This document shows, piece by piece, positions 9,782-45,970 of a stretch of 51,620 nucleotides of DNA; positions within the stretch are counted from its first letter, which is position 1; each line of letters begins with the position of its first letter. The stretch covers positions 1 to 51,620 of IMG/VR virus record IMGVR_UViG_2541047950_000002; one strand, given 5' to 3'. Origin of the DNA: a virus (taxonomy: Duplodnaviria > Heunggongvirae > Uroviricota > Caudoviricetes). A program made the translations under genes and the position numbers. The notes under the pieces are model-generated. The model saw only the letters and a list, made by a program, of their open reading frames with translations, did not search any database and was not told where the DNA came from.

Positions 9782-10596
9782 GTATGGAGCTGATGGTTAA
9801 AGCGATGAAAATTCGAGTGGGTAATCCATTGCGAAAACTGGTTCTGATCAAGCTGGCTGATAATGCCAGCGATCAGGGTGAGTGCTGGCCCAGCTACCAG
9901 CATATTGCTGACCAGTGCGAGATTAGCAAACGTTCTGTGATGAATCATATTGCGGCCCTTTGTGAGTCCGGGCTGGTAAAAAAAGTCACCCGGAAAGGTG
10001 AAAAAGGTAACTCAAGTAATATCTATCTCCTTCATCTTGATGGTGCAGGAGATTCACTAGGGAGTAGTGCAAATAATTCACTATCTGGTGCAGCAAATTC
10101 ACCAGGTAGTGCAGGAGTTGCACCAGGGGGTAGTGCAGGAGATTCACCCAGAACCAGTCACTCTTTTGAACCAGTCAAAGAACCAGTCAATGAACCAATA
10201 GCTGTTGGTGCATCTGCTGATGAGTCTGTGCGAGTTCGTTCAAACCGATCGGAATACTCTCCGGAGTTTGAGCAGGCATGGCTGGCATACCCCAAACGTG
10301 CTGGTGGCAATTCAAAATCTGCAGCCTTCAAAGCCTGGAAAGCCCGTTTGAATGAGGGGGTAAAACCCGAAACCATGCTGGCAGGTGTGAAACGCTACGC
10401 GGGCTGGGTATCTGCGATGGGTAACAGCGGCACACAATTTGTGAAACAGGCTGTCACGTTCTTTGGCCCGGATCGTCATTTCGAAGAATCCTGGGAAGTT
10501 CCTGCGGTATCTGCAGCCAGACGCGAGGACCCGTACTTCAAAGCCAGTTACGACAACGTGGACTACAGCCAGATCCCGGCAGGATTCAGGGGGTGA
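9778..10596 (+). CDS. replication initiator, O-like (N-terminal HTH, iteron-encoding linker, C-terminal domain)
   Basis: 272 aa; N-terminal winged-helix-like region; the central low-complexity linker is encoded by the 21-22 bp tandem repeats; same architecture as lambda O. Confidence 0.55.
   Translation: MSMELMVKAMKIRVGNPLRKLVLIKLADNASDQGECWPSYQHIADQCEISKRSVMNHIAALCESGLVKKVTRKGEKGNSSNIYLLHLDGAGDSLGSSANNSLSGAANSPGSAGVAPGGSAGDSPRTSHSFEPVKEPVNEPIAVGASADESVRVRSNRSEYSPEFEQAWLAYPKRAGGNSKSAAFKAWKARLNEGVKPETMLAGVKRYAGWVSAMGNSGTQFVKQAVTFFGPDRHFEESWEVPAVSAARREDPYFKASYDNVDYSQIPAGFRG
10041..10149. repeat. iteron-like tandem repeats (candidate origin of replication) inside the O-like gene
   Basis: About five imperfect 21-22 bp direct repeats (GGTAGTGCAGGAGATTCACC-like) followed by three GAACCAGTCA repeats. 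Confidence 0.5.
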
Positions 10597-11087
10597 GCAT
10601 GGGTCTTTTGAATGACGTTCAGAAATTCATTGAAGCCCATCCGGGCTGTACTTCCGGAGACATTGCGGATGCTTTTGCAGGTTACTCACGGCAGCGCGTT
10701 CTGCAGTCAGCAAGCAAGTTACGTCAGAGTGGGCGTGTGGCTCACCGTTGTGAAGGAGATACACGCAGACATTTCCCGCGCCTGACTGAGAGAGCGCAGG
10801 AGCCGGAACCACAACCAGTTCGTGAAACCAGACCTGTGCGCAATTTCTATGTCGGCACTAACGATCCACGGGTGATTTTGTGCCTGACCCGCCAGGCTGA
10901 AGAACTGGAGTCAAGGGGCTTATACCGTCGTGCTGCAACCGTGTGGATGGCGGCATTCCGTGAAAGCCACTCCCAGCAAGAACGAAACAATTTTCTGGCA
11001 CGTCGTGAGCGGTGCTTACGGAAAAGCAGCAAGCGCGCTGCATCGGGTGAAGAGTGGTATCTGTCAGGGAATTACGTGGGGGCTTAA
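10593..11087 (+). CDS. PerC-like regulator with N-terminal extension
   Basis: 164 aa; C-terminal GLYRRAATVW resembles the PerC/Pch signature as recalled; start GTG 10593 or ATG 10599. Confidence 0.4.
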   Translation: MSMGLLNDVQKFIEAHPGCTSGDIADAFAGYSRQRVLQSASKLRQSGRVAHRCEGDTRRHFPRLTERAQEPEPQPVRETRPVRNFYVGTNDPRVILCLTRQAEELESRGLYRRAATVWMAAFRESHSQQERNNFLARRERCLRKSSKRAASGEEWYLSGNYVGA

Positions 11088-11740
11088 TGAGTAATAAATA
11101 TTGCCAGGCGCTGGTGGAACTGCGGAACAAACCAGCCCATGAACTGAAGGAAGTGGGCGATCAGTGGCGCACGCCGGACAACATTTTCTGGGGAATTAAC
11201 ACCCTGTTTGGCCCGTTTGTTCTGGATCTGTTTACTGACGGTGATAACGCCAAATGTGCCGCGTATTACACGGCGGAAGACAATGCGCTGGCGCATGACT
11301 GGTCAGAACGTCTTGCGGAGCTTAAAGGTGCTGCCTTTGGTAATCCCCCATACAGCCGCGCCAGTCAGCATGAGGGGCAATACATCACCGGCATGCGTTA
11401 CATCATGAAGCATGCCAGTGCCATGCGTGATAAAGGCGGGCGCTATGTTTTCCTGATCAAAGCTGCCACCAGCGAAGTGTGGTGGCCGGAAGATGCAGAT
11501 CATATTGCTTTTATTCGCGGGCGTATTGGTTTTGAACTGCCTGCCTGGTTTATCCCGAAGGATGAGAAGCAGGTGCCGACAGGCGCTTTCTTCGCTGGAG
11601 CTATTGCTGTTTTCGACAAGACCTGGAAGGGACCGGCAATCAGCTACATCGGGCGCGATGAACTTGAGGCATGTGGTGAGGCCTTTCTGGCGCAGGTTCG
11701 CCAGCAGGCAGAAAAACTGGTCAGGGAGATGGCGGCATGA
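11087..11740 (+). CDS. phage N6-adenine DNA methyltransferase
   Basis: 217 aa from MSNKYCQ; NPPY catalytic motif (GNPPYS); TAATG overlap with the upstream gene. Confidence 0.7.
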   Translation: MSNKYCQALVELRNKPAHELKEVGDQWRTPDNIFWGINTLFGPFVLDLFTDGDNAKCAAYYTAEDNALAHDWSERLAELKGAAFGNPPYSRASQHEGQYITGMRYIMKHASAMRDKGGRYVFLIKAATSEVWWPEDADHIAFIRGRIGFELPAWFIPKDEKQVPTGAFFAGAIAVFDKTWKGPAISYIGRDELEACGEAFLAQVRQQAEKLVREMAA

Positions 11741-12063
11741 CGACGTTAACTCAATGCCAGCAGCAGGTGCTGGATATGCTGATTTCTTATCAGAAAGAGC
11801 GTGGCTTTCCGCCAACCAATCAGGAGGTGGCAACCATGCTGGGATACCGTTCAGTGAATGCAGCGGTAGAGCATCTTCGCGCACTGGAGAAAAAAGGCGT
11901 CATCACGATAAAGCGTGGCGTGGCCCGGGGGATAACGCTTCATACCGCGGTGAAGGACGACGACAGCGAGGCGGTCGGGATTATCCGCGCACTGCTTGCC
12001 GGTGAGGAAAACGCAAGGCTGCGTGCAACCCACTGGTTACATGAGAGGGACCTGAAAGTATGA
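11737..12063 (+). CDS. LexA DNA-binding-domain-only protein (no S24 peptidase domain)
   Basis: 108 aa; GYRSVNAAVEHLRALEKKGVI closely parallels the LexA N-terminal segment [21 protein letters not shown]; ends before any protease domain. Confidence 0.55.
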   Translation: MTTLTQCQQQVLDMLISYQKERGFPPTNQEVATMLGYRSVNAAVEHLRALEKKGVITIKRGVARGITLHTAVKDDDSEAVGIIRALLAGEENARLRATHWLHERDLKV

Positions 12064-12449
12064 AGCTGATCCTGCCTTTTCCGCCCAGCGTGAACACGTA
12101 CTGGCGACACCCCAACAAAGGGGCGTTTGCTGGTAAGAGCCTGATAAGCGCGGCGGGGCGAAAATTCCAGAGCGCGGCGTGCGCAGCAATAGTTGAGCAG
12201 TTACGTCGTCTGCCGAAACCAACGTCGGCACCTGCTTCAGTGGAGATCGTGTTGTTTCCTCCGGATAACCGGATCCGCGATCTGGACAACTATAACAAGG
12301 CGCTGTTTGACGCCCTGACCCACGCGGGGGTGTGGGAAGACGACAGTCAGGTGAAAAGAATGCTGGTGGAGTGGGGACCGGTTATCCCGGAAGGGAAGGT
12401 CGAGATCACTATCAGTAAGTACGAGAAAACGGCGGGTGCAGCTGCCTGA
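12060..12449 (+). CDS. rusA: RusA-family Holliday junction resolvase
   Basis: 129 aa; MKLILPFPPSVNTYWR N-terminus and acidic DLDNYNKALFDAL motif typical of RusA. Confidence 0.8.
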   Translation: MKLILPFPPSVNTYWRHPNKGAFAGKSLISAAGRKFQSAACAAIVEQLRRLPKPTSAPASVEIVLFPPDNRIRDLDNYNKALFDALTHAGVWEDDSQVKRMLVEWGPVIPEGKVEITISKYEKTAGAAA

Positions 12450-12468
12450 TCAAGAGGAGAAACGAAGT

Positions 12469-13278
12469 ATGAATAATCTGATGGTCATTGATGGTATTGA
12501 AGTTCGTCGTGATGCTTATGGGCGTTACAGCCTGAACGATCTGCATCGCGCAGCAGTAGCATCTGGTGCAAATGCCAGAACCAAGGAGCCAGGAAAGTTT
12601 CTTTCCAGCCAACAAACTGTTGAGCTTGTTCATGAATTAACCAACACCCAGAATTTGGGTGTTGACCCGGTGAGTGTGATTCATGGGGGAAATGAACGGG
12701 GAACGTATGTCTGTAAGGAACTGGTGTATGCCTATGCAATGTGGATCAGCCCGTCATTCCATCTGAAGGTGATCCGTACTTTCGATATGGTAACCAGCGC
12801 GCCGGAAAAGTTATCCGGACAGGCTGCTGACAAGATGCAGGCTGGCGTGATTCTGCTGGACTTTATGCGCCGGGAGTTAAATCTGTCTAACTCATCTGTG
12901 CTTGGGGCCTGTCAGAAACTCCAGGAGGCTGTTGGCTTACCGAATCTGGCACCGCGCTATGCCATTGATGCACCTGCTGACGCGCCTGATGGCTCAAGCC
13001 GCCCGACGCTGTCGCTGAGTGCACTGCTGAAGCAGTATGGTATCCGCCTGACGGCTAATCAGGCATATCACCAGATGGCGAAGCTGGGGATCGTCGAGCA
13101 GCGCGAACGATACAGCCGTACCGCGATTAACAACATCAAAAAATTCTGGTCGCTGACAGCGAAAGGTTGCATGTTCGGCAAGAACATCACCAGTCCCGCA
13201 AATCCGCGCGAGACGCAGCCGCATTTCTTCGAATCCCGATTTCCTGAGCTGTTAAAGCTGCTCGATACCGTTCATTGA
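12469..13278 (+). CDS. KilA-N domain protein
   Basis: ATG at 12469 with AAGAGGAG RBS; N-terminal KilA-N-like region (VIDGIEVRRDAYGRYSLNDLH). Confidence 0.55.
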   Translation: MNNLMVIDGIEVRRDAYGRYSLNDLHRAAVASGANARTKEPGKFLSSQQTVELVHELTNTQNLGVDPVSVIHGGNERGTYVCKELVYAYAMWISPSFHLKVIRTFDMVTSAPEKLSGQAADKMQAGVILLDFMRRELNLSNSSVLGACQKLQEAVGLPNLAPRYAIDAPADAPDGSSRPTLSLSALLKQYGIRLTANQAYHQMAKLGIVEQRERYSRTAINNIKKFWSLTAKGCMFGKNITSPANPRETQPHFFESRFPELLKLLDTVH

Positions 13279-13279
13279 G

Positions 13280-14275
13280 GTGGCCGTGAGAGCACTACTG
13301 ACCCCTGAAATTGCCCCGCGTATGGGGATCGTATTGTTCAGGCCAGGTTCAGATCTGATGCCCCTGTTTATGCAGGGGCGTGTCCTGCTGGAGCCTGAGC
13401 CGGAGCGTTATTCATCTTTCGCCAGTGGTGCCGTTCCGGCGGCATCACAACCGCTGGCGGATGATCCTGCCGTTCGGGCCGTGTTCCGCAATGAGGCAGT
13501 GATCCGTCGTGCTGGTGGCGTGGAATGTCTTGAAAGCTGGTTACTTCGTGAAAAAGGCTGCCAGTGGCCTCATTCCGACTGGCACAGCGAGAACATGACC
13601 ACAACGCGCCATGCGCCGGGCGCAATCCGTCTGTGCTGGCACTGCGATAACCAGTTGCGTGACCAGTTCACGGAACGGCTGGAATCAATGGCAACGGATA
13701 ACTGTGCCCGCTGGGTGTTGTCTGTTGTGCGTCGGGATCTCGGTTTTGATGACAGTCACGTTGTGACAATGCCGGAACTGTGCTGGTGGCTGATTCGTAA
13801 TGACCTGGCGGATGCCTTACCGGAAAGTGCAGCCCGTAAGGCACTGAGATTACCGAAGCCTGTTGTGCCGTCTGTCACCCGGGAAAGTGACCTTGTGCCT
13901 TCGGTTCCTGCCACCAGCATCATCCAGGATAAGGCGAAAAAGGTGCTGGCGCTGAAAGTGGATCCGGAGTCGCCGGAGTCTTTTATGTTACGCCCAAAAC
14001 GTCGCCGCTGGGTTAATGAAAAGTACACGCGCTGGGTTAAGACACAGCCGTGTGCATGTTGTGGAAAGCCCGCTGATGATCCCCACCACCTGATAGGTTA
14101 CGGTCAGGGTGGAATGGGAACAAAAGCGCATGACCTTTTTGTGTTGCCTTTGTGCAGAAAGCATCACGACGAGCTGCATGCGGATACCGTGGCATTTGAA
14201 GAAAAGTATGGCTCCCAGCTGGAGCTGATATTTCGTTTTATCGATCGCGCGCTGGCGATTGGTGTGCTGTCCTGA
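13280..14275 (+). CDS. DUF968/HNH-like nuclease-domain protein
   Basis: 331 aa, GTG start; C-terminal Cys/His cluster (CACCGKPADDPHH...CRKHHDELH). Confidence 0.5.
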   Translation: MAVRALLTPEIAPRMGIVLFRPGSDLMPLFMQGRVLLEPEPERYSSFASGAVPAASQPLADDPAVRAVFRNEAVIRRAGGVECLESWLLREKGCQWPHSDWHSENMTTTRHAPGAIRLCWHCDNQLRDQFTERLESMATDNCARWVLSVVRRDLGFDDSHVVTMPELCWWLIRNDLADALPESAARKALRLPKPVVPSVTRESDLVPSVPATSIIQDKAKKVLALKVDPESPESFMLRPKRRRWVNEKYTRWVKTQPCACCGKPADDPHHLIGYGQGGMGTKAHDLFVLPLCRKHHDELHADTVAFEEKYGSQLELIFRFIDRALAIGVLS

Positions 14276-14292
14276 TTTTGTGGAGAAAGTTG

Positions 14293-14673
14293 ATGCGTGA
14301 TATTCAGATGGTTCTTGAACGCTGGGGGGCATGGGCGGCAAGTGGTAACACCGGGGTGGACTATTCTCCGATCGCTGCCGGATTCAAAGGACTTTTACCA
14401 TCTGCCACTAAACCACGTCCGGCCTGCTGCGATGATGACGGACTTATCATTGAAAACTGTCTTGCTCGTCTGAAGCAGAAAAAACCTGAGGAGTATTCGC
14501 TTCTCATTGCTCATTATTTGTTGCGAATATCAAAAAGACAGATAGCCAGGACGAGAAAGAAAAGCGAAAAAGCAATACGAATTGAGATGCAGATAGCCGA
14601 AGGGTTTATTGACGGATGTTTGTCTGTGCTGGGGGTAAGACTGGAGATGGACGACTGGCTGCTAAAAAAGTAA
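14293..14673 (+). CDS. Q: late-gene antiterminator Q (phage 21/933W type)
   Basis: MRDIQMVLERWGAWAA N-terminus recalls Q of the 21/933W group; last gene of the coupled early operon, followed by a terminated short leader. Confidence 0.65.
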   Translation: MRDIQMVLERWGAWAASGNTGVDYSPIAAGFKGLLPSATKPRPACCDDDGLIIENCLARLKQKKPEEYSLLIAHYLLRISKRQIARTRKKSEKAIRIEMQIAEGFIDGCLSVLGVRLEMDDWLLKK

Positions 14674-14767
14674 AAAATGATTAGCGCGGTCCGCAAAAAG
14701 TATGTCAGTATGTTAAGAGTGGTTACTTCGCCACACAGCTTAAACCCGCCGCGAGCGGGTTTTTTTA
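14674..14767 (+). promoter_or_regulatory. late promoter/qut region with tR'-like terminator (hairpin at 14743-14767)
   Basis: Intergenic segment after Q ending in hairpin CCCGC-CGCGA-GCGGG and a T7 run. Confidence 0.5.
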
Positions 14768-14888
14768 TGGCTGAAATCGGTCCTGTACAGTAAACGCGCT
14801 GGTGGTGGTGAATACCGGTCTTTCAGCTTGCTGGCTTTTTTGACAAGAGTTATTGGTGTGTCACGTTAACCGGAAAAGGGAAAAAGAC

Positions 14889-15086
14889 ATGCTGAAACAG
14901 CAGGATATGACCGAAACCGCCAGAGTGGTGTTTAATGAATTAAGCGTCACTGAACCGGCGACAGTCGGGGAGATTGCGCAGAATACTTATCTTTCACGTG
15001 AACGCTGCCAGTTAATACTGACCCAGCTTGTTATGGCGGGTCTGGCAGACTATCAGTTCGGTTGTTACAGACGCCTTCAGTCATGA
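14889..15086 (+). CDS. hypothetical small protein, 65 aa
   Basis: ATG at 14889; ORF ends inside a terminator hairpin. Confidence 0.35.
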   Translation: MLKQQDMTETARVVFNELSVTEPATVGEIAQNTYLSRERCQLILTQLVMAGLADYQFGCYRRLQS

Positions 15087-15100
15087 AGGCTTTTTTATTT
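15073..15100 (+). terminator. rho-independent terminator
   Basis: GCCTTCA-GTCA-TGAAGGC hairpin followed by TTTTTTATTT. Confidence 0.5.
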
Positions 15101-15236
15101 GTGGTAAATGGGCGGCTGGTGGGTGTTAGGGGCACTCACCAGCCATCTGCTCATGCGTCCGGATCACAAGCAAACCTCAGGCCCACTGCTTTGCGCAAAA
15201 GCAGAATGAGCCTATCAGAGACAGGCTTAATGATCC

Positions 15237-16295
15237 ATGCTTAATACTGTAAAAATATCCAGTTGTGAGTTAATCAACGCCGACTGCCTGGAATTTATCC
15301 GGTCGTTACCCGAAAATTCTGTTGACCTGATAGTCACGGATCCGCCGTACTTTAAAGTGAAGCCTGAGGGCTGGGATAACCAGTGGAAGGGCGACGATGA
15401 TTACCTGAAGTGGCTGGACCAGTGTCTTGCGCAGTTCTGGCGGGTGCTGAAACCTGCCGGAAGTCTTTACCTGTTCTGTGGCCATCGCCTAGCATCTGAT
15501 ATCGAAATCATGATGCGTGAACGCTTCAGTGTGCTGAACCATATTATCTGGGCAAAGCCGTCCGGACGCTGGAACGGGTGCAACAAGGAAAGCCTGAGGG
15601 CGTATTTCCCCGCCACAGAGCGCATTCTGTTCGCGGAACATTATCAGGGGCCGTATCGTCCGAAAGATGCCGGGTATGAGGCGAAGGGCAGGGCACTGAA
15701 ACAGCATGTGATGGCTCCGCTGATTGCTTACTTTCGTGATGCGCGTGCTGCCCTAGGGATAACGGCAAAACAGATAGTGGATGCCACAGGAAAGAAAAAC
15801 ATGGTGTCGCACTGGTTCAGTGCCAGTCAGTGGCAACTGCCGAACGAAAGTGATTATCTGAAATTACAGGCGCTGTTTGCCCGGGTGGCAGAAGAGAAGC
15901 ATCAGCGGGGTGAACTGGAGAAGCCCCACCACCAGCTGCTGGAGACGTATACTTCACTGAACCGGCAGTATGCGGAACTGCAGAGTGAATATAAGCATCT
16001 GCGGCGGTATTTTGGCGTGACGGCGCAGGTGCCGTACACCGATGTGTGGACGCATAAACCGGTGCAGTACTATCCCGGGAAACATCCGTGCGAAAAACCG
16101 GCAGAAATGCTGCAGCAGATAATCAGCGCGAGCAGTCGTCCGGGGGACCTGGTTGCAGATTTTTTCATGGGGTCGGGTTCGACAGTCAAAGCCGCGATGG
16201 CACTGGGGCGTCGTGCAACTGGTGTTGAGCTGGAGACTGAACGTTTTGAGCAGACGGTCAGGGAAGTTCAGGATTTAGCCAGTCAGAACGGATGA
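15237..16295 (+). CDS. DNA methyltransferase (N4/N6 amino-MTase, DPPY motif)
   Basis: 352 aa; N-terminal VTDPPYF catalytic motif; C-terminal FFMGSGST AdoMet-binding motif. Confidence 0.7.
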   Translation: MLNTVKISSCELINADCLEFIRSLPENSVDLIVTDPPYFKVKPEGWDNQWKGDDDYLKWLDQCLAQFWRVLKPAGSLYLFCGHRLASDIEIMMRERFSVLNHIIWAKPSGRWNGCNKESLRAYFPATERILFAEHYQGPYRPKDAGYEAKGRALKQHVMAPLIAYFRDARAALGITAKQIVDATGKKNMVSHWFSASQWQLPNESDYLKLQALFARVAEEKHQRGELEKPHHQLLETYTSLNRQYAELQSEYKHLRRYFGVTAQVPYTDVWTHKPVQYYPGKHPCEKPAEMLQQIISASSRPGDLVADFFMGSGSTVKAAMALGRRATGVELETERFEQTVREVQDLASQNG

Positions 16296-16335
16296 TATTG
16301 CAGTATTAGTTACGTACCGTTATTATCCTGCACCC

Positions 16336-16411
16336 GGCCCTTTAGCTCAGTGGTGAGAGCGAGCGACTCATAATCGCCAGGTCGCTGGTTCAAATCCAGC
16401 AAGGGCCACCA
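16336..16411 (+). tRNA. tRNA with anticodon CAT (Met or Ile2-type)
   Basis: Manual cloverleaf: 7-bp acceptor GGCCCTT/AAGGGCC, anticodon loop CTCATAA, T-loop TTCAAAT, encoded 3' CCA. Confidence 0.8.
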
Positions 16412-16420
16412 TATCACATA

Positions 16421-16497
16421 CCGCCATTAGCTCATCGGGATAGAGCGTCAGCCTTCGAAGCTGGTTGCGCGGGGTTCGAGTCCTCGATGGCGGTCCA
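16421..16497 (+). tRNA. tRNA-Arg (anticodon TCG)
   Basis: Acceptor CCGCCAT/ATGGCGG, anticodon loop CTTCGAA, T-loop TTCGAGT, encoded CCA. Confidence 0.7.
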
Positions 16498-16510
16498 TTA
16501 TCGGTATTCA

Positions 16511-16587
16511 GCGTTGTTAGCTCAGCCGGACAGAGCAATTGCCTTCTAAGCAATCGGTCACTGGTTCGAATCCAGTACAACGCGCCA
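16511..16587 (+). tRNA. tRNA-Arg (anticodon TCT, reads AGA)
   Basis: Acceptor GCGTTGT/ACAACGC, anticodon stem ATTGC/GCAAT with loop CTTCTAA, T-loop TTCGAAT, encoded CCA. Confidence 0.8.
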
Positions 16588-16600
16588 TATTTATTTACCA

Positions 16601-16626
16601 GGCTCGCTTTTGCGGGCCTTTTTTGT
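16601..16626 (+). terminator. terminator-like hairpin after the tRNA cluster
   Basis: GGCTCGC-TTTT-GCGGGCC (one mismatch) followed by a T-run. Confidence 0.4.
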
Positions 16627-16756
16627 ATCCGCGCCACGCCCGGCGCATATCAACCACAGAGCCTTTCGGGGGTGAGCTTACGGAGTGGTCAGTGTGACTT
16701 TCTCTGTGGGCAGATCGCTCCCGGGCGTTGGCTCACCCACCTAAAGGAACGTCACG

Positions 16757-17188
16757 ATGTTTGGTATTTTCAAAAAGAAAACCCGCAGAGCAGCAGCGGA
16801 AATTAAAAAGTTTGAGAAACGTGATCTGGCACAGGCGGTTATTAATGCTGCCTACCTGGTAGCCTATGCAGATGGTGAATGTGAGGCTTCAGAGAAAGCG
16901 AAGATCGAGCAGGTCTTGCGTAACCAGCCAGCGTTGTCCGCGTTTACGTCAGAAATTAATGCTATCAGTGCCACGATCACAGGTCAGCTTGACACCAACT
17001 TTAAAATTGGTCGTCGAGCGGCGTTGCGTGAAATTGAAGATGTGAAACACGATACGCGTGAAGCGGAAGATGTGCTGGATGTGGCGGTGGCCATTGCTGA
17101 AGCAGATGGTGAAATTGAGCCGGAAGAGCGTAAGGTTCTGGAAGAGATTGCTGGTGTTCTTGGCCTGCGACTGGAGAACCACCTGTGA
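16757..17188 (+). CDS. TerB-like domain protein
   Basis: 143 aa; two ADG motifs (YADGECEASEKAKI and EADGEIEPEERKVL) typical of the TerB fold; sits where stx lies in Stx phages. Confidence 0.55.
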   Translation: MFGIFKKKTRRAAAEIKKFEKRDLAQAVINAAYLVAYADGECEASEKAKIEQVLRNQPALSAFTSEINAISATITGQLDTNFKIGRRAALREIEDVKHDTREAEDVLDVAVAIAEADGEIEPEERKVLEEIAGVLGLRLENHL

Positions 17189-17349
17189 CGGTAAAACTGC
17201 GTCTGGCCGCTGTGGCACTCCTGCTGTTTCTGGTGGTGATGGTGGATTTCACCAGCAGGATCATGTCGGTGCTGGCGGATGGAGTGCTGGTGGTCGGTAT
17301 TGTGGTGGTGCTTTTTCCTTTGGTGAAAAAGGACATGCCAGGTAGTTAG
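17185..17349 (+). CDS. small hydrophobic (membrane) protein, 54 aa
   Basis: GTG overlapping the TerB-like stop; predicted product VTVKLRLAAVALLLFLVVMV... is strongly hydrophobic; not in the ORF track. Confidence 0.3.
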   Translation: MTVKLRLAAVALLLFLVVMVDFTSRIMSVLADGVLVVGIVVVLFPLVKKDMPGS

Positions 17350-17596
17350 CCGGGTATCAGTCATGCCCCGAAAATTTTAAATGTCTCACAATTCAGACGG
17401 TTGACAGTTGTCTGTTTTGCGGGGAGTTTGTTAAAAGAAACAGGCATGGTGAATCCCCCTGAGCGGAGGGGCGACTGGTGCATTAGGTGTTATCTTTGAT
17501 ACCCAGGAAAGTAAACGCGCGGGTTTGGTGGCACCGGGCTGAACTCACCGGGAGGCACCCGGCATCATGCGCATGATGATACAGATACGCGGCTTT

Positions 17597-17622
17597 AGCC
17601 CCTCTCCGGAGGGGCTTTTATA
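17597..17622 (+). terminator. rho-independent terminator
   Basis: Perfect hairpin AGCCCCTC-TCCG-GAGGGGCT followed by TTTTATATGAATTTT. Confidence 0.6.
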
Positions 17623-17650
17623 TGAATTTTGTAAGATATGAGTAAACTAA

Positions 17651-17986
17651 TTATGGACACTGTTGTTTTAGTCCGTAAGGGCATATTTGCAGAATGCAAT
17701 GATTATTAAAGCATTCTTTCAATACGTTATCTGAATTTGCAGGACATTCCTGGCTGTTTTTGATTAAATCCCAGAATCTTTTATTGAATGGTACAACGTT
17801 GTAAATGGTTACAGGTAGCACTTTGTTATTAAGTACGATACCTGTGTGAGTCAACGTAAATATACTTTCAGGAGGTAAGAAAACATCCGATTGATACCAG
17901 ATTATTAATTTTATTTTACTCCATATGGCTGAAAAAGATATTCCGCATGATGGCTGGATAACTGTATCAATCACAATCCACTTCAT
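17651..17986 (-). CDS. orphan AT-rich protein, 111 aa, Cys-rich C-terminus; convergent to the late operon
   Basis: ATG at 17984-17986 with consensus AAGGAGG RBS on the - strand; very low GC; very AT-rich upstream region. Confidence 0.55.
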
Positions 17987-18247
17987 TTAGCCTCCTTATT
18001 TATGCTGTGCTGGTGATGTTCTGAAAAGTATAAATGATAATTTTGAATGTAAACCATAGAGCAGAATTATTTTTCTGATGTTGTTTATTGTTTATTTAAA
18101 TACAGGTTTTTTATATCCCGTCTTGTAGTTTATCCATGCATACCTGCTTTATGATGAGGTTTTCATTTAAGGTATGGTTTTGTGTTTTTTTTCTGTATTT
18201 CATGTCAGGTATTTTAAAGAATTGTTTTTAATATGGTGGAAAGAACC

Positions 18248-20215
18248 ATGGCATTTAAACACTACGATGTGGTCAGGGCGGCGTCGCCGTCAGACCTTGC
18301 GGAGCGACTGACTCAAAAACTGAAGGAGGGGTGGCAGCCATTTGGCAGCCCTGTCGCCATCACGCCTTATACCCTGATGCAGGCCATTGCGGCGGAAGGT
18401 GATGTCACCACACCTGTGGTGGTGAAGCCGTCGGATGGAGAAGGCACAGTAATCAGCGCCACCAGCGACCCGGAGTATTACTTTGTTGTGGTTCTGGCAG
18501 GGCAGTCAAATGGCATGTCGTATGGTGAAGGTCTTCCGCTGCCGGAGACATATGACCGTCCGGACCCGCGTATTAAGCAGCTGGCGCGCCGCAGTACGGT
18601 GACACCGGGCGGTGCCGCCTGTAAGTATAACGACATTATTCCGGCGGACCATTGTCTGCATGATGTGCAGGACATGAGCCGTCTTAACCATCCGAAAGCG
18701 GACCTGTCAAAGGGGCAGTACGGAACCGTGGGGCAGGGGCTGCATATCGCCAAAAAACTGCTGCCGTTTATACCGGCGAATGCGGGCATTCTGCTGGTTC
18801 CGTGCTGCCGTGGTGCTTCGGCATTCACAACGGGGGCAGACGGCACATACAGCGAATCAGCCGGTGCATCGGAAAATTCACTGCGCTGGGGTGTGGGTAA
18901 GCCGCTGTATCAGGATTTGGTGAGCCGGACTAAAGCCGCACTGGCGAAGAACCCGAAAAACCGTCTGCTTGCGGTGGTGTGGATGCAGGGAGAAGGTGAT
19001 GCGGCAGTGGGGACGCATGCGCAGCATCCGGGGCTGTTTAGTGCGATGGTGAATCAGTTCAGAACGGAGCTTGCCGGTCTGGCATCACAGAGCACAGGAG
19101 GCAGCGCATCAGCGGTACCGTGGATTTGCGGGGACACAACGTATTTCTGGAAGCAGCGTCATGCGGAAGGGTATGCATCAGTATACGGAGGGTATAAGGG
19201 GAAGGAGTCGCAGAACATTTTCTTTGTACCGTTAATGACGGATGAGAATGGTGCGAATGTGCAGACCAATAACCCGGCAGAAGACCCGGACCTGGAAACC
19301 GTCGGTTATTACGGTTCAAAGTGGCGTAATGACCAGAAGACCTGGACATCAGCAGACAGGGCCAGCCATTTCAGTTCATGGGCTCGCCGTGGGATTATTT
19401 CCGACCGTCTGGCAACGGCGATTCTGTTGCACGCCGGGAGAACCGCTGAATTCATTACCGGAAAACAGCCTGATACGGTGAAGCCCACCGGACCTTCCGG
19501 TGAAGGTCCGGAGAGAGAGGCGGAAGCCCCGGCCAGTAAGCGTACCCTGATGAGTCTGCTGGCATCCGGCGAAGACCTGGCATCACAGGGCTGGCGCTAT
19601 TATCACAAACCGGCGAGCGGAGACAGTATTGATAAAAACATCGCTGAGGCTGTGGTCAGTGATGAGGGTGCCACCGGTGGTAAGGCCCTGCAACTGAACA
19701 AACCGGAAAGCCACATCTGGTTTCTGGAGCATGATGCAGCCGGGCAGGGGGCAGAGTTACTGAAGAAAGGCGGACGTGTGAGCGTGCGGTTTAAGGTGCC
19801 GGGCTCACTGGTACAGAACCGGTTTGCCCTGGGTATTTACTGGCAGTTGTCGTCCCTGCCGGAGGGTGTGTCGCTGGCGGAGGAAGGCAACGACATGCTG
19901 ATGTCCTTCTTCCTGCAGACGGATGCGACGAACCTGAACGCGATGTACCACAAGACGCAGAATGCGAAGCTGGATACGTTCGGGGCATTTGATAACGAAT
20001 GGCACACACTGTCTTTTGAGTTTGCCGGAAACAACAGTATTCAGGTGACGCCGGTACTTGATGAGAAGCGGGGCACGCCATTCACGCTGGTGAAATCTCA
20101 GGCAACAGGGGTGGCGGATAAACTTCTGCTGACTGATATCACGAAGGTAGCAACGTATACGCTGCTGATTGACAGCGTGAAGGTGGAAGTGAACAACGCG
20201 GACGCCGCGGCATGA
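18248..20215 (+). CDS. NanS-p-like sialate O-acetylesterase (N-terminal DUF1737-like, C-terminal carbohydrate esterase)
   Basis: About 655 aa; N-terminus MAFKHYDVVRAASPSDLAERL recalls the Stx-phage NanS-p/YjhS family; same position relative to Q and S as in Stx phages. Confidence 0.65.
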   Translation: MAFKHYDVVRAASPSDLAERLTQKLKEGWQPFGSPVAITPYTLMQAIAAEGDVTTPVVVKPSDGEGTVISATSDPEYYFVVVLAGQSNGMSYGEGLPLPETYDRPDPRIKQLARRSTVTPGGAACKYNDIIPADHCLHDVQDMSRLNHPKADLSKGQYGTVGQGLHIAKKLLPFIPANAGILLVPCCRGASAFTTGADGTYSESAGASENSLRWGVGKPLYQDLVSRTKAALAKNPKNRLLAVVWMQGEGDAAVGTHAQHPGLFSAMVNQFRTELAGLASQSTGGSASAVPWICGDTTYFWKQRHAEGYASVYGGYKGKESQNIFFVPLMTDENGANVQTNNPAEDPDLETVGYYGSKWRNDQKTWTSADRASHFSSWARRGIISDRLATAILLHAGRTAEFITGKQPDTVKPTGPSGEGPEREAEAPASKRTLMSLLASGEDLASQGWRYYHKPASGDSIDKNIAEAVVSDEGATGGKALQLNKPESHIWFLEHDAAGQGAELLKKGGRVSVRFKVPGSLVQNRFALGIYWQLSSLPEGVSLAEEGNDMLMSFFLQTDATNLNAMYHKTQNAKLDTFGAFDNEWHTLSFEFAGNNSIQVTPVLDEKRGTPFTLVKSQATGVADKLLLTDITKVATYTLLIDSVKVEVNNADAAA

Positions 20216-20365
20216 TGAAAAAGGCCGCCAGCAATGAAGGAAAGGGATGAACTTTTGTCCACTACATGAATGCTGGCGGCTGGTAAAACGATCATGATGA
20301 CAGCGAAGTCTGGGTGTTTTTCTACAAAAATAAGTAAATTATGTCAACTATAACGGTGAGAAAAC

Positions 20366-20545
20366 ATGACATTTCTGAACCAGTTAATGCTGTACTTCTG
20401 TACGGCGGTCTGTGTGCTGTATCTTCTTTCGGGTGGGTACAGGGCTGTGCGCGATTTCTGGCGCAGACAGATTGATAAAAGGGCCGCTGAGAAAATCAGC
20501 GCCAGTCAGTCAGCCGGAACCAGACCCGAAGAGCCGCTCATTTAG
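20366..20545 (+). CDS. small membrane protein, 59 aa
   Basis: ATG with upstream GGTGAG; hydrophobic N-terminus; not in the ORF track. Confidence 0.3.
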   Translation: MTFLNQLMLYFCTAVCVLYLLSGGYRAVRDFWRRQIDKRAAEKISASQSAGTRPEEPLI

Positions 20546-20585
20546 TTGCAATCTTCTTTACAACACCTTTCAACGAGAAAATCCC

Positions 20586-20870
20586 ATGTCAGAAATAAAA
20601 CCCCTGGTCACTGCTGAGGCAGTGAAAGACGCGCTGCGCTCAGAAGATGTGCGTGGAGCACTGAAACAGAAAGTCCGCCAGACATTTGAAGCGCAGATAG
20701 AAGCGGAGGTGGATGCGATTCTGGATACGCTACTGGGCGAGCAGCCAGGCGAACAGCCAGAGCCGGAACCGCAACCGGAAGATATCACCTCAGAAAACGG
20801 CGATATTCAGCCCGAATCACCGGTGGTTGATGCGACTGAAGCACAACCCGAACCGGGCACAATGCTGTAA
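20586..20870 (+). CDS. hypothetical acidic protein, 94 aa
   Basis: ATG at 20586 within the longer track ORF 20412-20870; acidic Pro/Glu-rich C-terminus. Confidence 0.4.
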
Positions 20871-20946
20871 AGGTGAGTCAGGGCCATCAGTAAAGTACTG
20901 CTGGCCTTTTTCATGTTGTGAGCTTCCGGATTGCGGGAGACGGGGT

Positions 20947-21162
20947 ATGTACCAGATGGAAAAAATAACAACAGGTGTGTCATACACCACGTCAGCGGTG
21001 GGAACGGGCTACTGGTTCCTGCAGCTGCTGGACAGGGTTTCCCCGTCTCAGTGGGCGGCAATAGGCGTGCTGGGGAGTCTGCTGTTTGGTCTGCTGACGT
21101 ACCTGACGAACCTGTATTTCAAAATCAGAGAGGACCGTCGTAAGGCGGCACGGGGAGAGTAG
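20947..21162 (+). CDS. S: pinholin (S21-type class II holin) with dual-start motif
   Basis: [71 protein letters not shown] closely matches phage 21 S as recalled; Met1/Met4 dual start; GGAG RBS. Confidence 0.75.
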
Positions 21163-21165
21163 GTG

Positions 21166-21723
21166 ATGAACCATGAAGAAATGAATCAGCGCTTCAGTCG
21201 TCTGGAAAATGAAATTGCTGAACTGAATAAAAAACTGTCGGCGCTGATGCCTTCTGAAGATGAAAAAAAACGCCGCGATGAGCAGTTTGCTGCGTTTGAC
21301 GATTATTGTCGGAAAGTGATGAGCAGAAATCTCGCAGAGTGTTTCAGTATTCATAATGATAATTTCAGTGAGCTGGAATGGGAGTGTAACCGGCCATCCT
21401 TTGTTGTATCCGGTGATGCTGGGAAAATAACCATCTCAGAAAATGGGAAAGTAACACCTCCATCGCACCAGCACAGTGAGGAGCTCATTGAATTTGCCAT
21501 TGATTACCTGAAGAACAATAAAAAACAGGGGCTGATGCAGCGCATTGGTCGTTGCATGGGGTATCTGCAGGTAGCCGCTGAGATTGAAGCGCTGGCCAGT
21601 GGTGCTGATAAGGATGCAGTTGTGCGGGAGACCGTTCTTCGTGATTTCAATACTCCACCCTTTAAGACTGAGCCTGATAACTGGATCCAGCCGGGGCTGA
21701 CTTATCTTAAAGTGCGTATTTAG
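21166..21723 (+). CDS. hypothetical protein, about 185 aa, inserted between holin and endolysin
   Basis: Starts immediately after the holin stop (GTG 21163 or ATG 21166); no recognisable lysis-protein features. Confidence 0.45.
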   Translation: MNHEEMNQRFSRLENEIAELNKKLSALMPSEDEKKRRDEQFAAFDDYCRKVMSRNLAECFSIHNDNFSELEWECNRPSFVVSGDAGKITISENGKVTPPSHQHSEELIEFAIDYLKNNKKQGLMQRIGRCMGYLQVAAEIEALASGADKDAVVRETVLRDFNTPPFKTEPDNWIQPGLTYLKVRI

Positions 21724-21759
21724 TGGGCCAGGGACAGCGGCTGAATATTTAATATATCC

Positions 21760-22293
21760 ATGAACGCAAAAATCAAATACGGCCTGTCAGCTGCTGTTCT
21801 GGCGCTGATTGCCGCAGGGGCTTCTGCGCCTGAAATCCTCGACCAGTTTCTGGATGAAAAAGAAGGTAACCACACCACGGCATACCGTGATGGTGTGGGT
21901 ATCTGGACCATCTGCCGTGGAGCCACCCGGGTGGATGGTAATCCTGTGATTCCTGGCATGAAGCTGTCGAAGGGGAAATGCGACCGGGTTAACGCCATTG
22001 AGCGTGATAAGGCGCTGGCATGGGTGGAGAAAAACATCAAAGTGCCACTGACTGAACCCCAGAAAGCGGGAATTGCGTCATTCTGTCCTTACAACATTGG
22101 CCCCGGTAAGTGTTTCCCGTCGACGTTTTATAAACGAATTAATGCAGGCGATCGAAAAGGTGCCTGCGAAGCGATTCGCTGGTGGATTAAGGACGGTGGC
22201 AGAGACTGCCGTATTCGCTCAAATAATTGCTACGGTCAGGTATCCCGTCGCGACCAGGAGAGTGCGCTGGCATGCTGGGGTATCGACAGGTAG
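21760..22293 (+). CDS. R: SAR endolysin (R21-type lysozyme)
   Basis: N-terminal signal-anchor-release segment (GLSAAVLALIAAGASAPE); lysozyme-like core; paired with the pinholin as in phage 21. Confidence 0.75.
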   Translation: MNAKIKYGLSAAVLALIAAGASAPEILDQFLDEKEGNHTTAYRDGVGIWTICRGATRVDGNPVIPGMKLSKGKCDRVNAIERDKALAWVEKNIKVPLTEPQKAGIASFCPYNIGPGKCFPSTFYKRINAGDRKGACEAIRWWIKDGGRDCRIRSNNCYGQVSRRDQESALACWGIDR

Positions 22294-22566
22294 CAGAATA
22301 TTTTGCTGAAAAATGACGTTGACCAACGCGGACGGATAACACGAAATCCTGCGAACTGGCAAAACCTAAGTGAATAAAGTCAGGAACATTGTTTCACGCA
22401 GAGGCACCGTAATGGTGCCTTTGGCATTTCTGCGCTTCGCACAAGCGTAAATAAACCAAAGAACCTTTCAGGATGAGCCCTGGTGGATAACCGGCAGTGG
22501 TCTGGTTAACCCTCTTTGGGCTGGTTATTCCTGTGCGCAGGGTTCATCACTAAAAGGAAATAACCG

Positions 22567-23136
22567 ATGAATATGATAACCGTGCCGTTTCACGGCGATT
22601 CTCTTTATGTGGTTAACCATAACGGCGAACCATACGTTCCCATGAAACCTGTCGTTGCGGGGATGGGGCTGGCCTGGCAATCACAGTTGGCTAAGTTAAG
22701 ACAGCGTTTTGCGTCAACTATAACGGAAATCGTTATGGTTGCTGAGGACGGGAAACGACGCAATATGGTGTCCCTGCCACTTCGAAAACTTGCAGGCTGG
22801 TTACAAACCATCAATCCCAACAAAGTAAAACCCGGAATCCGCGACAAGGTTATCCAGTATCAGGAAGAGTGCGACGATGTTCTCTATGAATACTGGACGA
22901 AGGGTTTTGTCGTTAATCCTCGTCAAATGAGCGTGATGGAAGAACTCAACCAGGCATGCGCTGACATGAAACGGGATAAAAACATTGCCAGTCTGTTTGG
23001 TACAGGGTTAAACGAATGGAAACTGGTTAAAGCCGCGCATGTATCAAAAATTCGCACGTTGATAAACGAAGCGAATCTGCTGATTGGTTTTGTCCTGGCT
23101 GATACAGGCAAAGGAAAAATCACAAAGACGGATTGA
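22567..23136 (+). CDS. AntA/AntB-type antirepressor-like protein
   Basis: 189 aa; N-terminal FHGDSLYVVNHNGEPYVPMKPVVAGMGL resembles the AntA domain as recalled; has its own upstream intergenic region. Confidence 0.5.
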   Translation: MNMITVPFHGDSLYVVNHNGEPYVPMKPVVAGMGLAWQSQLAKLRQRFASTITEIVMVAEDGKRRNMVSLPLRKLAGWLQTINPNKVKPGIRDKVIQYQEECDDVLYEYWTKGFVVNPRQMSVMEELNQACADMKRDKNIASLFGTGLNEWKLVKAAHVSKIRTLINEANLLIGFVLADTGKGKITKTD

Positions 23137-23150
23137 TGGAGTGGCGTCTA

Positions 23151-23285
23151 ATGATATCAGGCAAACTCATAACGCTGGCGAAGACCATCTGTGTGATTGT
23201 CGGCGTTTCATTTTCGCTAATGATGGTTGCTCTTTTTCTTTCCATAGCCTGGATGGCGTTGACTTCGGCAGGGCTGGTGGGGTGA
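23151..23285 (+). CDS. small hydrophobic protein, 44 aa
   Basis: ATG with GGAG 9 nt upstream; predicted single membrane helix; under 60 aa. Confidence 0.25.
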   Translation: MISGKLITLAKTICVIVGVSFSLMMVALFLSIAWMALTSAGLVG

Positions 23286-23405
23286 CAGTGACTGATGACG
23301 ACAATTTATTTAAACAGATGAGTACTGAATTTATTCGGGCAACGGCATTTGCCATTCGCATTGTGGCAATTGCGGTTCTAATCCGGGAAATCCGCTGGTG
23401 GTGAA

Positions 23406-24173
23406 ATGAATAATAACTCTGCAAAACCGTTTCTCCCGTGGTTAGGAGGGAAGCGTCGTCTGGCAAAACATATTCTGCCGTTATTTCCTGAGCACACTCT
23501 GTATGTGGAACCGTTCTGTGGCGGTGCGGCACTGTTCTTTATGAAAAAACCGAGCTGCGCTGAAATCATCAACGATATAAACAGTGATATCGTTAATCTC
23601 TACCGTGTGGTGAAGTACCACCAGGAGGAATTTTCCCGCCAGTTTCAGTGGATGCTCGCCAGTCGTGAGATGTGGAATGAGGTGATAAATCAGCACACGG
23701 AGTACATGACGGATATCCAGCGGGCTGTCCGTTTCTTTTTTATCCAGAAGTGCGCGTATGGCGGAAGAGCATACAGTCGGGCATTTGGAGTTAAAACTCA
23801 CAGACCGCAGATAATCCCCGGGAATACAGAGCAGTTATTGCAGGAAGCCCGTGATCGGCTGGCGCGGGCAACTATTGAACACCTTGACTGGGAGGTCTGT
23901 ATCGCACGGTATGACCGCCCGACAACGCTGTTTTACTGCGATCCTCCGTATTGGTTGGATGGTGGTTACGGCATTGATTTTTCATTCTGCAATTATGAGC
24001 GCATGGCAGAACTTGCCCGCACAATAAAAGGCAAAATGATTATATCCCTGAACGATACGCAGGAAATGAGACGATTGTTTGAGGGGATGAATATTCATCA
24101 TGTTGCTCATCGTTATACTGTACCACGTGGTAAGACAAGCAGTGTCAGCGAGCTGATAATCTGCAATTTCTGA
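23406..24173 (+). CDS. Dam-family N6-adenine DNA methyltransferase
   Basis: 255 aa; N-terminal PWLGGKRRL AdoMet motif and DPPY catalytic motif. Confidence 0.75.
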   Translation: MNNNSAKPFLPWLGGKRRLAKHILPLFPEHTLYVEPFCGGAALFFMKKPSCAEIINDINSDIVNLYRVVKYHQEEFSRQFQWMLASREMWNEVINQHTEYMTDIQRAVRFFFIQKCAYGGRAYSRAFGVKTHRPQIIPGNTEQLLQEARDRLARATIEHLDWEVCIARYDRPTTLFYCDPPYWLDGGYGIDFSFCNYERMAELARTIKGKMIISLNDTQEMRRLFEGMNIHHVAHRYTVPRGKTSSVSELIICNF

Positions 24174-24181
24174 CAGGGGGC

Positions 24182-24685
24182 ATGGTGAGCATAAACCGAA
24201 TTCTTTCCGCGTTTACTGTTATTCTGCTGGTGGTCTGTGGTGCGCTTAGTCTGGGGCTGAATCATTACCGCGATAACGCCATCACCTACAAAGCGCAGCG
24301 CGATAAAAAAGCCAGAGAGCTGGAACAGGCGAATGCCACCATTACTGACATGCAGGTGCGCCAGCGTGATGTTGCTGCGCTCGATGCAAAATACTCGAGG
24401 GAATTAGCCGATGCGAGAGCTGAAAATGAAACTCTGCGTGCTGATATTGCCGCTGGTCGTAAGCGCCTGCGGCTCAACGCCACCTGCCCCGGTACCGTGC
24501 GTGAAGCCACCGGCACCTCCGGCGTGGATAATGCAACCGGCCCCCGACTGGCAGACACCGCTGAACGGGATTATTTCAACCTCAGAGAACGGTTGATGAC
24601 AATGCAGAAGCAGCTGGAAGGGGCGCAGGAATATATACGCACTCAGTGCACTAAGCTGGCTTTTTATTATCCGGAGGATACATGA
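24182..24685 (+). CDS. Rz: i-spanin Rz
   Basis: 167 aa; strong similarity to lambda Rz as recalled (NHYRDNAITYKAQRDK..., VDNA..PRLADTAERDYF). Confidence 0.8.
   Translation: MVSINRILSAFTVILLVVCGALSLGLNHYRDNAITYKAQRDKKARELEQANATITDMQVRQRDVAALDAKYSRELADARAENETLRADIAAGRKRLRLNATCPGTVREATGTSGVDNATGPRLADTAERDYFNLRERLMTMQKQLEGAQEYIRTQCTKLAFYYPEDT
24411..24596 (+). CDS. Rz1: o-spanin Rz1 (lipoprotein) embedded in Rz in the +1 frame
   Basis: 61 aa; lipobox LVVSAC and proline-rich CVKPPAPPAWIMQPAPDWQTPLNGII match lambda Rz1. Confidence 0.7.
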   Translation: MRELKMKLCVLILPLVVSACGSTPPAPVPCVKPPAPPAWIMQPAPDWQTPLNGIISTSENG

Positions 24686-44000: not shown

Positions 44001-44140
44001 CACCCGGCTGGCGTTTTTCACGTAACGGAAAACTGGAAATTAACAGCAGTAATGACGGTGGGCGCATGACTTTTAACGGCGATCGTATCGATGTGTATGA
44101 TCAGAATGGTGTGCTGCGTGTCCGGATGGGGAAACTCTGA
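41066..44140 (+). CDS. J: host-specificity tip attachment protein J
   Basis: About 1024 aa from MGKGGGKGHTP; N-terminal two thirds closely match lambda gpJ as recalled; C-terminal receptor-binding part diverges. Confidence 0.85.
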   Translation: MGKGGGKGHTPVEAKDNLKSTQMMSVIDAIGEGPIEGPVKGLQSILVNKTPLTDTDGNPVIHGVTAVWRAGEQEQTPPEGFESSGAETALGVEVTKAKPVTRTITSANIDRLRVTFGVQSLVQTTSEGDRNPASVRLLIQLQRNGNWVTEKDVTINGKTTSQFLASVILDNLPERPFNIRMVRETADSTTDQLQNRTLWSSYTEIIDVKQCYPNTAIVGLQVDAEQFGGQQMTVNYHIRGRIIQVPSNYDPEKRTYSGIWDGSLKPAYSNNPAWCLWDMLTHPRYGMGKRLGAADVDKWALYAIGQYCDQMVPDGFGGTEPRMTFNAYLSQQRKAWDVLSDFCSAMRCMPVWNGQTLTFVQDRSSDVVWPYTNSDVVVDDNGVGFRYSFSALKDRHTAVEVNYTDPQNGWQTSTELVEDPDAILRYGRNLLKMDAFGCTSRGQAHRAGLWVIKTELLETQTVDFTLGSQGLRHTPGDIIEICDNDYAGTLTGGRILSIDAASRTLTLDREVTLPETGTSTVNLINGSGKPVSVDITAHPAPDRIQVSTLPDGVETYGVWGLSLPSLRRRLFRCVSIRENTDGTFAITAVQHVPEKEAIVDNGASFEPQSGTLNSVIPPAVQHLTVEVSAADGQYLAQAKWDTPRVVKGVRFSLRLTSGSGEDSRLVTTAITADTEHRFSGLPLGEYTLTVRAINSYGQQGEPATTTFRINAPAKPATIELTPGYFQITAVPRLAVYDPTVQFEFWFSEAKIADTAQVETAARYLGTGSQWSVSGSRIKPGTDFWFYVRSVNLVGKSAFVEAGGQASNDAEGYLDFFRGEIGKTHLAQGLWELIDNSQLADDMAEMQTTITETRNEITQTVSKTLESQSATIQQIQRVQTGTNDDLAALYMLKVQKTKDGIPYVAGIGAGIEDTDGQTLSNILLQADRIAMINPQDGNTTPLFVAQGNQLFLNDVLMKSLIVDFASITGEIQSDGFKSGSPGWRFSRNGKLEINSSNDGGRMTFNGDRIDVYDQNGVLRVRMGKL

Positions 44141-44164
44141 TGTTCATTCTTCAGGAGCAGTGAT

Positions 44165-44446
44165 ATGGGATACGGTTATTCTGTTTATGATGGCAAAGGA
44201 AGGGATATCAGCGGGTTTCTCACTCCGATATTTTTTCTTGACAGATTCACGGCATCGTCAGGCTCAAAAACATACGCAGATCCACCACGGGGAAAGTCAT
44301 TGTGTGCTGTATGTTCATTAATGCCTTTGAATAATGATAATCATATAAATATTCCGTCTCCTCAGATTGTTATTGAAGGTAACACGGTTCGCTGGTCAAA
44401 CCTGTATCAGGGATTAGGTTCATATATTTATACATTCTGGAGGTGA
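44165..44446 (+). CDS. hypothetical protein, 93 aa, AT-rich post-J cargo
   Basis: ATG with AGGAG RBS 8 nt upstream; about 40 percent GC against a GC-rich tail module. Confidence 0.45.
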   Translation: MGYGYSVYDGKGRDISGFLTPIFFLDRFTASSGSKTYADPPRGKSLCAVCSLMPLNNDNHINIPSPQIVIEGNTVRWSNLYQGLGSYIYTFWR

Positions 44447-45060: not shown

Positions 45061-45164
45061 ATCACTGTGCAGATAGTTTATTTTGATGGTCAGTTAATTT
45101 TATGCGTAAACAGCATGTGATGCATTATCGAATCTGTTCTGTTTAATTATGGCTGGGTATTAAA

Positions 45165-45896: not shown

Positions 45897-45922
45897 CGGC
45901 CAAAATACGACGGTTTTAGTCT

Positions 45923-45953
45923 GCCCGTAGCATCATTGCTGCGGGCTTTTTTT
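45923..45953 (+). terminator. rho-independent terminator after the lom-like gene
   Basis: GCCCGTAGCA...TGCTGCGGGC stem followed by TTTTTTT. Confidence 0.6.
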
Positions 45954-45970
45954 ATTATTGGTGGAAGAGT

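Follow-up and report, generated by a model that had tools for sequence, protein, structure and literature searches.

The window, that is, the whole stretch of DNA that was analysed, comprises the 51,620 nucleotides of IMG/VR virus record IMGVR_UViG_2541047950_000002 and was found to be a lambdoid Escherichia coli prophage with dusA as its integration site. Three DNA methyltransferase (MTase) genes, designated MT1, MT2 and MT3, were located in the window as follows:

11087-11740, + strand: MT1, a phage N6-adenine MTase of 217 residues (PF05869/TIGR01712, NPPY motif) in the early-right (nin-like) operon
15237-16295, + strand: MT2, a beta-class adenine MTase of 352 residues of the M.EcoGI/M.EcoGII type, predicted to be non-specific
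23406-24173, + strand: MT3, a Dam-like D12-class adenine MTase of 255 residues in the late lysis cassette

These open reading frames (ORFs) had been singled out in an initial annotation made from the letters of the DNA, which described them as three orphan enzymes spread over early and late expression and serving layered anti-restriction or epigenetic control. The genes themselves bore out this description: all three were intact and full length, their lengths were those of their annotated homologues and they belonged to three families. Additionally, the early and late placement was as described, the early-right operon holding one gene and the Q-dependent late transcript the other two.

The MT1 protein matched PF05869 at 9.7e-46 and 156 bits (cutoff 28.1), and it matched TIGR01712, 'phage N-6-adenine-methyltransferase', at 255.6 bits (cutoff 97.05) over profile positions 1-165 of 165. 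The catalytic (D/N)PPY motif appeared in the translation as FGNPPYS, and the early-operon NPPY enzyme of the initial annotation was thus recovered as proposed. MT1 was flanked by the following genes:

10593-11087, + strand: yfdN-like gene of the PerC family (Pfam PF06069; annotation of identical loci)
11737-12063, + strand: ORF of 108 residues with a LexA DNA-binding domain only (Pfam PF01726), referred to as LexA_N

Because the TAA stop of the yfdN-like gene and the MT1 ATG share one base (TAATG) and the MT1 stop overlaps the ATG of the LexA_N ORF as ATGA, MT1 is translationally coupled to its neighbours on both sides. The yfdN-MT1-LexA_N-rusA block was kept in related prophages. We also observed that the LexA_N protein, which was without a peptidase domain, was a constant companion of yfdN and MT1; this protein could be an SOS-box decoy or a regulator.

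Near-identical MT1-like DNA was present in 2120 of 5426 complete E. coli genomes, and the MT1 protein was found at an identity of at least 99% in 38 phage records, among them AGR48376 of phage 1720a-02 (99% identical). No relatives of MT1 were found in the PDB. The Dam enzymes of phages T1 and HP1 presumably are further members of PF05869. A characterised lambdoid member of the same Pfam family is M.EcoVT2Dam (VT2-Sakai orf32), whose target is GATC (PMC6602927). The two proteins share the Pfam and TIGR family, the NPPY motif, a small size, orphan status and a position in the nin region of a lambdoid phage. In contrast, M.EcoVT2Dam has 175 residues compared with the 217 of MT1, and its neighbours are ninB and ninE instead of yfdN and LexA_N. 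With 31% identity over 144 residues, M.EcoVT2Dam was too distant to be used as a characterised anchor for MT1.

Among the long genes of the late transcript, MT2 came first, and it was preceded by the following features:

14278-14673, + strand: antiterminator Q (Pfam PF06530, 1.6e-52)
14742-14762, + strand: terminator-like hairpin with a T-run, directly 3' of Q at the position of tR'
15073-15090, + strand: second terminator-like hairpin with a T-run, 5' of MT2

The distance from Q to MT2 was 564 bp, in agreement with the earlier description of a DPPY enzyme 'after Q', and a consensus scan revealed no promoter-like site between the two genes. The two hairpins and the lack of a promoter-like site fit an arrangement in which MT2 would be transcribed only upon antitermination by Q.

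The MT2 protein gave a single PF01555 match (5.8e-44) over residues 29-340, without extra domains, and had the beta-class order of DPPY (residues 34-37), a central target recognition domain and FxGxG (FFMGSGS, near residue 309). The beta-class assignment therefore stood, but MT2 proved not to be the anonymous enzyme that the initial annotation had made of it, as 329 of 348 residues (~95%) were identical to M.EcoGII. The M.EcoGII sequence used for this comparison was taken from supplement 5 of the SUPREM paper (PMC11551740) and was PDF-derived; of the mismatches (~5%), most fell within the central recognition region (residues 181-272), and some may be PDF reading errors. MT2 was also identical at 348 of 352 residues (99%) to the MTase of phage 1720a-02, which Murray et al. 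2018 called 'very similar' to M.EcoGII (PMC5778455).

M.EcoGII and M.EcoGI, which share 333 of 349 residues, are encoded by a prophage of E. coli O104:H4 C227-11 and have the same order of DPPY, target recognition domain and FxGxG as MT2 (PMC5778455). M.EcoGII was shown to be non-specific, methylating adenine whatever the context; it is toxic under constitutive expression, is silent in the lysogen and is presumed to be switched on at prophage induction (PMC5778455). M.EcoGI has likewise been described as non-specific (PMC4659465). MT2 differs from M.EcoGII at ~5% of its residues, and non-specificity of the MT2 allele is a prediction by homology. On this basis, we infer that MT2 would methylate adenine in any context and be silent in the lysogen. 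M.EcoGII, the close relative of MT2, is a commercial and well-studied enzyme. Near-identical MT2-like DNA was found in 2043 of the 5426 complete genomes, and a genome could hold as many as 7 copies.

MT3 lay between the endolysin and Ant genes and Rz, which corresponds to the 'lysis region' of the initial annotation. The features around it were as follows:

21760-22293, + strand: endolysin R (ORF list; labelled 'lysozyme' in homologous loci)
22567-23136, + strand: Ant-type antirepressor (P22_AR_N; Pfam), the 5' partner of MT3 at every locus seen
23136-23285, + strand: ORF of 49 residues common to VT2-Sakai, the last gene before the insertion
23292-24189, + strand: discrete insertion of ~0.9 kb relative to VT2-Sakai, with MT3 and a short ORF remnant, and with a fuzzy right-hand edge (pairwise alignment)
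24182-24685, + strand: Rz spanin (Pfam PF03245, 6.6e-50)

Pairwise alignment revealed that VT2-Sakai has the order R-ant-49aa-Rz without the MT3 insertion. The cassette R-Ant-49aa-MT3-Rz was constant in the loci seen while the phage backbones differed, one being a podovirus-type Stx1c prophage, and the MT3 DNA was 99.7-100% conserved across them. In IBS28, the MT3 homologue (locus L002, 14625-15393) was annotated as frameshifted within an otherwise 98% identical late region; the gene is thus able to decay. We also observed that an ORF at 23084-23404, which runs in another frame over the 49-residue gene, matched phrog_3246 (4.9e-39) and ended one base 5' of the MT3 start codon; either of the two frames may be the one that codes.

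A megablast search found MT3 in only 5 of the 5426 complete E. coli genomes, and none of 50,697 phage genomes encoded a protein at least 60% identical to it. The close relatives of MT3 formed two clusters, at 100% and 87% identity. Beyond both clusters, the nearest relatives (~58% identical) were orphan methylases in Mu-like transposable prophages across Enterobacterales, and more distant ones were found in Klebsiella phage KP12, VP882, phiHAP-1 and Burkholderia phage phiE125 (gp27). These phage-borne Dam-like proteins showed 52-58% full-length identity to MT3, but the MTases of the Mu-like and telomere phages adjoin repressor or lysis genes in transposable phages, whereas MT3 is located between ant and Rz of a lambdoid phage. 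In the Mu-like prophages, the ~58% relatives, on Enterobacterales chromosomes (loci L018-L021), had the lysis genes on one side and the repressor on the other, a site that recalls the position of mom and Hin1523 in Mu-like phages. Literature searches for a published specificity of the VP882 and phiE125 relatives gave nothing usable, and no member of this group with a defined specificity was found.

The description of MT3 as a Dam-family enzyme was supported by PF02086 (4.4e-27 and 95.9 bits, cutoff 22) and by a bare pass of TIGR00571 (115.2 bits, cutoff 114.85). MT3 gave direct matches to GATC methylases of the D12 class whose structures have been solved (E. coli Dam, T4 Dam and DpnM), at 1e-17 for DpnM and 3e-15 for E. 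coli Dam (EcoDam), and it had their alpha-class order, with the S-adenosylmethionine (AdoMet) motif FCGGA (motif I) in the N-terminal region and DPPY (motif IV) in the C-terminal region. In contrast, the identity was only 26-27%, and the E. coli Dam equivalog model NF008152 gave 72 bits against a cutoff of 441. The roles of the GATC-contact residues K9, L122, R124 and P134 of EcoDam are reportedly those described by Horton et al. 2006. In alignments made with phmmer and MAFFT, none of these residues was kept in MT3: K9 corresponded to P, L122 to R, R124 to a gap or Y and P134 to K or a gap. Additionally, the recognition hairpin of MT3 was ~3 residues shorter than that of EcoDam. The same pattern was evident throughout the MT3 clade, in which the AdoMet and DPPY motifs were kept while the GATC-contact residues were not, L122 being replaced by R or K. 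Since the residues with which EcoDam reads GATC are not conserved, MT3 is better regarded as Dam family by fold only, and GATC methylation should not be taken for granted in it; the specificity of MT3 is probably not based on a Dam-type readout of GATC.

MT3 also resembles Hia5/Hin1523 in concept, these being non-specific, orphan alpha-class MTases of Mu-like prophages with a broad anti-restriction function that are silent in the lysogen (Drozdz et al. 2012, PMC3299994). The Hia5 family is remote from Dam, as it was reached only at PSI-BLAST iteration 3 with ~15% identity (PMC3299994), whereas MT3 matches Dam directly; by the description in that paper, the Hia5 family would be the more distant one. 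M.EcoGV, another enzyme encoded by a prophage and described as a 'Dam homolog', is specific for GATC.

Related prophages carried the three genes in pairs. MT1 and MT2 occurred together in STEC1585 and in phage 1720a-02, and MT2 and MT3 occurred together in FHI_NMBU_10 and in IBS28, where MT3 is broken. In the four of the five MT3 genomes that were inspected (2013C-3033 was the fifth, and the second places in two genomes were likewise outside the inspection), MT1 was in no case found in the same prophage as MT3. The late region of the window was ~98% identical to those of FHI_NMBU_10 and IBS28 from position ~14740 on, and similarity to late regions of this type began at the hairpin at 14742-14762, directly after Q. 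The part upstream of ~14740 was of the type found in the prophage of strain W24. These results suggest a recombination joint at the early/late boundary, at ~14740. Because the late-type similarity starts right after Q and W24-type DNA lies upstream of it, the trio is best explained as the product of recombination between standard modules at this boundary and not as a designed unit. Few prophage genes are commoner in E. coli than MT1 and MT2, and the window holds three known kinds of methylase in a combination so far unseen.

The search for a partner nuclease agreed with the statement in the initial annotation that no cognate endonuclease was evident, as far as Pfam, PHROGs, PADLOC and the PGAP annotation of relatives can tell. 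Among the neighbours of the three genes, Pfam identified PerC, the LexA DNA-binding domain, RusA, KilA-N, DUF968, Q, the P22-type antirepressor and Rz. No restriction nuclease or defence hit was obtained with Pfam, PHROGs or PADLOC in the neighbours or in the unannotated ORFs, three of which were without a Pfam family, and no restriction enzyme was present in the PGAP annotation of near-identical prophages. An adjacent cognate endonuclease gene, by which a type II restriction-modification system is defined, was thus found for none of MT1, MT2 and MT3. An ORF of 186 residues at 21163-21723, between holin and endolysin, had neither a Pfam nor a PADLOC match, and its matches, with phrog_1085 at the top, were confined to PHROG families of unknown function.

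We propose, with a probability of roughly 0.7, that the window is a lambdoid prophage at dusA, similar to Stx phages but without stx, which has acquired three independent orphan N6-adenine MTases by modular recombination, and that these enzymes methylate phage DNA during lytic growth and are silent in the lysogen. What the sequence establishes is the identity, intactness, family, position and rarity of the genes; their timing, specificity and biological role are inferred. MT1 would be made during early replication from the early-right operon (yfdN-MT1-LexA_N-rusA...Q), and MT2 and MT3 would act from the Q-dependent late transcript, MT3 being carried on a moron of ~0.9 kb between ant and Rz. 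Replicating and packaged phage DNA would be methylated in lytic growth, yielding progeny DNA rich in methyl-adenine, and the progeny could then survive type I, II and III restriction that is sensitive to adenine methylation in the next host. All three genes would stay silent in the lysogen. A role in protection agrees with what has been published for M.EcoGII (PMC5778455), for Hia5-type enzymes (PMC3299994) and for prophage methylases generally (PMC4659465). Methylomes of lysogens with M.EcoGI/GII-type and prophage Dam-type genes showed no extra motif, and the genes were transcriptionally silent (PMC6602927, PMC4659465). We found no promoter-like site upstream of MT1, MT2 or MT3 such as would mark a moron expressed in the lysogen, and the three genes were rejected as candidates for such morons on this ground.

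Several points weigh against this proposal. The promoter and terminator scans were simple consensus matches. GATC specificity of MT1 would be a family-level guess, because the identity to M.EcoVT2Dam is so low, and the frameshift in IBS28 suggests weak selection on MT3. If MT2 is non-specific, MT1 and MT3 add little, which argues for redundancy or historical accident over a layered design. Heavy N6-methyladenine (m6A) could also sensitise the phage to nucleases that depend on methyl-adenine. Anti-restriction was retained from the initial annotation as the most plausible role, but its layered character was not: since the target set of MT2 would contain those of MT1 and MT3, the specificities are better described as nested or redundant. 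The initial annotation had itself named a shared specificity, or inactivity of two of the genes as pseudogenes, as findings that would speak against it; nested targets come close to the former, while all three genes were intact.

In a rival explanation, the genes accumulated by accident as independent passengers of lambdoid module recombination, with MT2 as the only one that matters and MT1 and MT3 redundant and weakly selected. It overlaps our proposal and is not exclusive of it; we consider it possible but rather unlikely. It accords with the standing of MT1 and MT2 as standard module genes, each present in ~38-39% of complete E. coli genomes, with the existence of two-gene prophages (MT1 with MT2; MT2 with MT3), with the parental-type junction directly after Q, with the frameshifted MT3 of IBS28 and with the presumed non-specificity of MT2, which would subsume the other two enzymes. 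However, all three genes are intact here, MT1 is tightly coupled within a conserved operon, and the near-complete conservation of MT3 DNA (99.7-100%) extends over different backbones. Another view, which we regard as doubtful, takes MT3 and its ~58% relatives from Mu-like and telomere phages as an uncharacterised Dam-like clade that has lost the canonical residues for reading GATC and so may have a new or relaxed adenine specificity. MT3 together with an early GATC-type and a late non-specific enzyme would then make up a temporally staged programme of methylation, which would give phage DNA more protection than M.EcoGII-type methylation on its own, for instance where MT2 acts poorly on certain sites or states of the DNA ahead of packaging.

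Epigenetic control, the other role named in the initial annotation, would have one or more of the methylases switched on in the lysogen or early after induction as a regulator of phage or host genes, for instance by way of GATC-dependent switches, stable lysogeny or avoidance of MutH and SeqA action on replicating phage DNA. Host Dam is reported to be necessary for stable 933W lysogeny (Murphy et al. 2008, listed as a reference in PMC3893438), and MT1 is an early-operon gene of a family whose tested members are specific for GATC (PMC6602927). This role is nevertheless improbable, given the silent homologues and the lysogen methylomes without extra motifs described above (PMC6602927, PMC4659465), the lack of promoter-like sites upstream of the three genes and the fact that the host has its own Dam. 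The number of GATC sites, 169 observed compared with ~199 expected, was near expectation, and Dam-type switches were rejected since the intergenic regions examined (cI-cro, Q-MT2 and R-ant) held no GATC clusters. A hidden restriction-modification or defence system, in which a methylase pairs with an unrecognised nuclease, is very improbable. Restriction nucleases are often invisible to sequence search, three ORFs lack a Pfam family, and the DUF968 protein (13280-14275) showed a borderline HNHc_6 match of 26.6 bits, at the cutoff, which makes this HNHc-like protein and the 186-residue ORF the candidates. Neither had a PADLOC hit, however; the DUF968 gene lies 1.5 kb from MT1 and is present in related prophages without MT1, the 186-residue holin-endolysin ORF occurs without MT3 in STEC1585, and MT3 moves as a single-gene insertion.

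Prophage orphan methylases shape the host reach of a phage and of its toxin and resistance genes, and the element in the window is a close relative of Stx2-converting phages. With MT2 recognised as an M.EcoGII-type enzyme, near-total adenine methylation of the progeny DNA is predicted; the progeny would then escape restriction broadly and could be sensitive to nucleases that depend on methyl-adenine. Beyond the specificity of the MT3 clade and the gain from three methylases compared with one, the finding mainly illustrates the modular mosaicism of phages.

The remaining features of the element were as follows:

16336-16587, + strand: trio of tRNA genes (CAT, Arg-TCG, Arg-TCT), found upstream of stx in Stx phages (homologous-locus annotation)
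16757-17188: TerB
17651-17986, - strand: IraM
49021-50118, - strand: integrase (annotation of homologous loci)
50207-51244: dusA

The left end of the window lay just within the left attachment site. The prophage is a member of a mosaic family that includes Stx2-converting phages: the central 14.5 kb matched 520 phage records, mostly named E. coli or Stx-converting phages, and over its left 10.6 kb the prophage was 100% identical to those carried by strains W24 and RM14516. The matching prophage regions of these two strains, as identified in a search with window positions 10.5-25 kb, contained Stx2 genes. In contrast, stx was absent from the prophage copy in the window, which is thus an stx-negative sibling of the Stx2 prophages. 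The usual site of stx, 3' of the tRNA trio (16336-17986), was occupied instead by TerB, a DUF3927 ORF and IraM. We also observed two patches of low GC content (~43%, compared with 55-58% in the tail genes) at 44000-46000 and 48000-50000. A membrane protein (phrog_425, 44443-45060) and an outer-membrane protein of the Lom/Ail type (45165-45896) were encoded in the former, and the latter was the location of the integrase.

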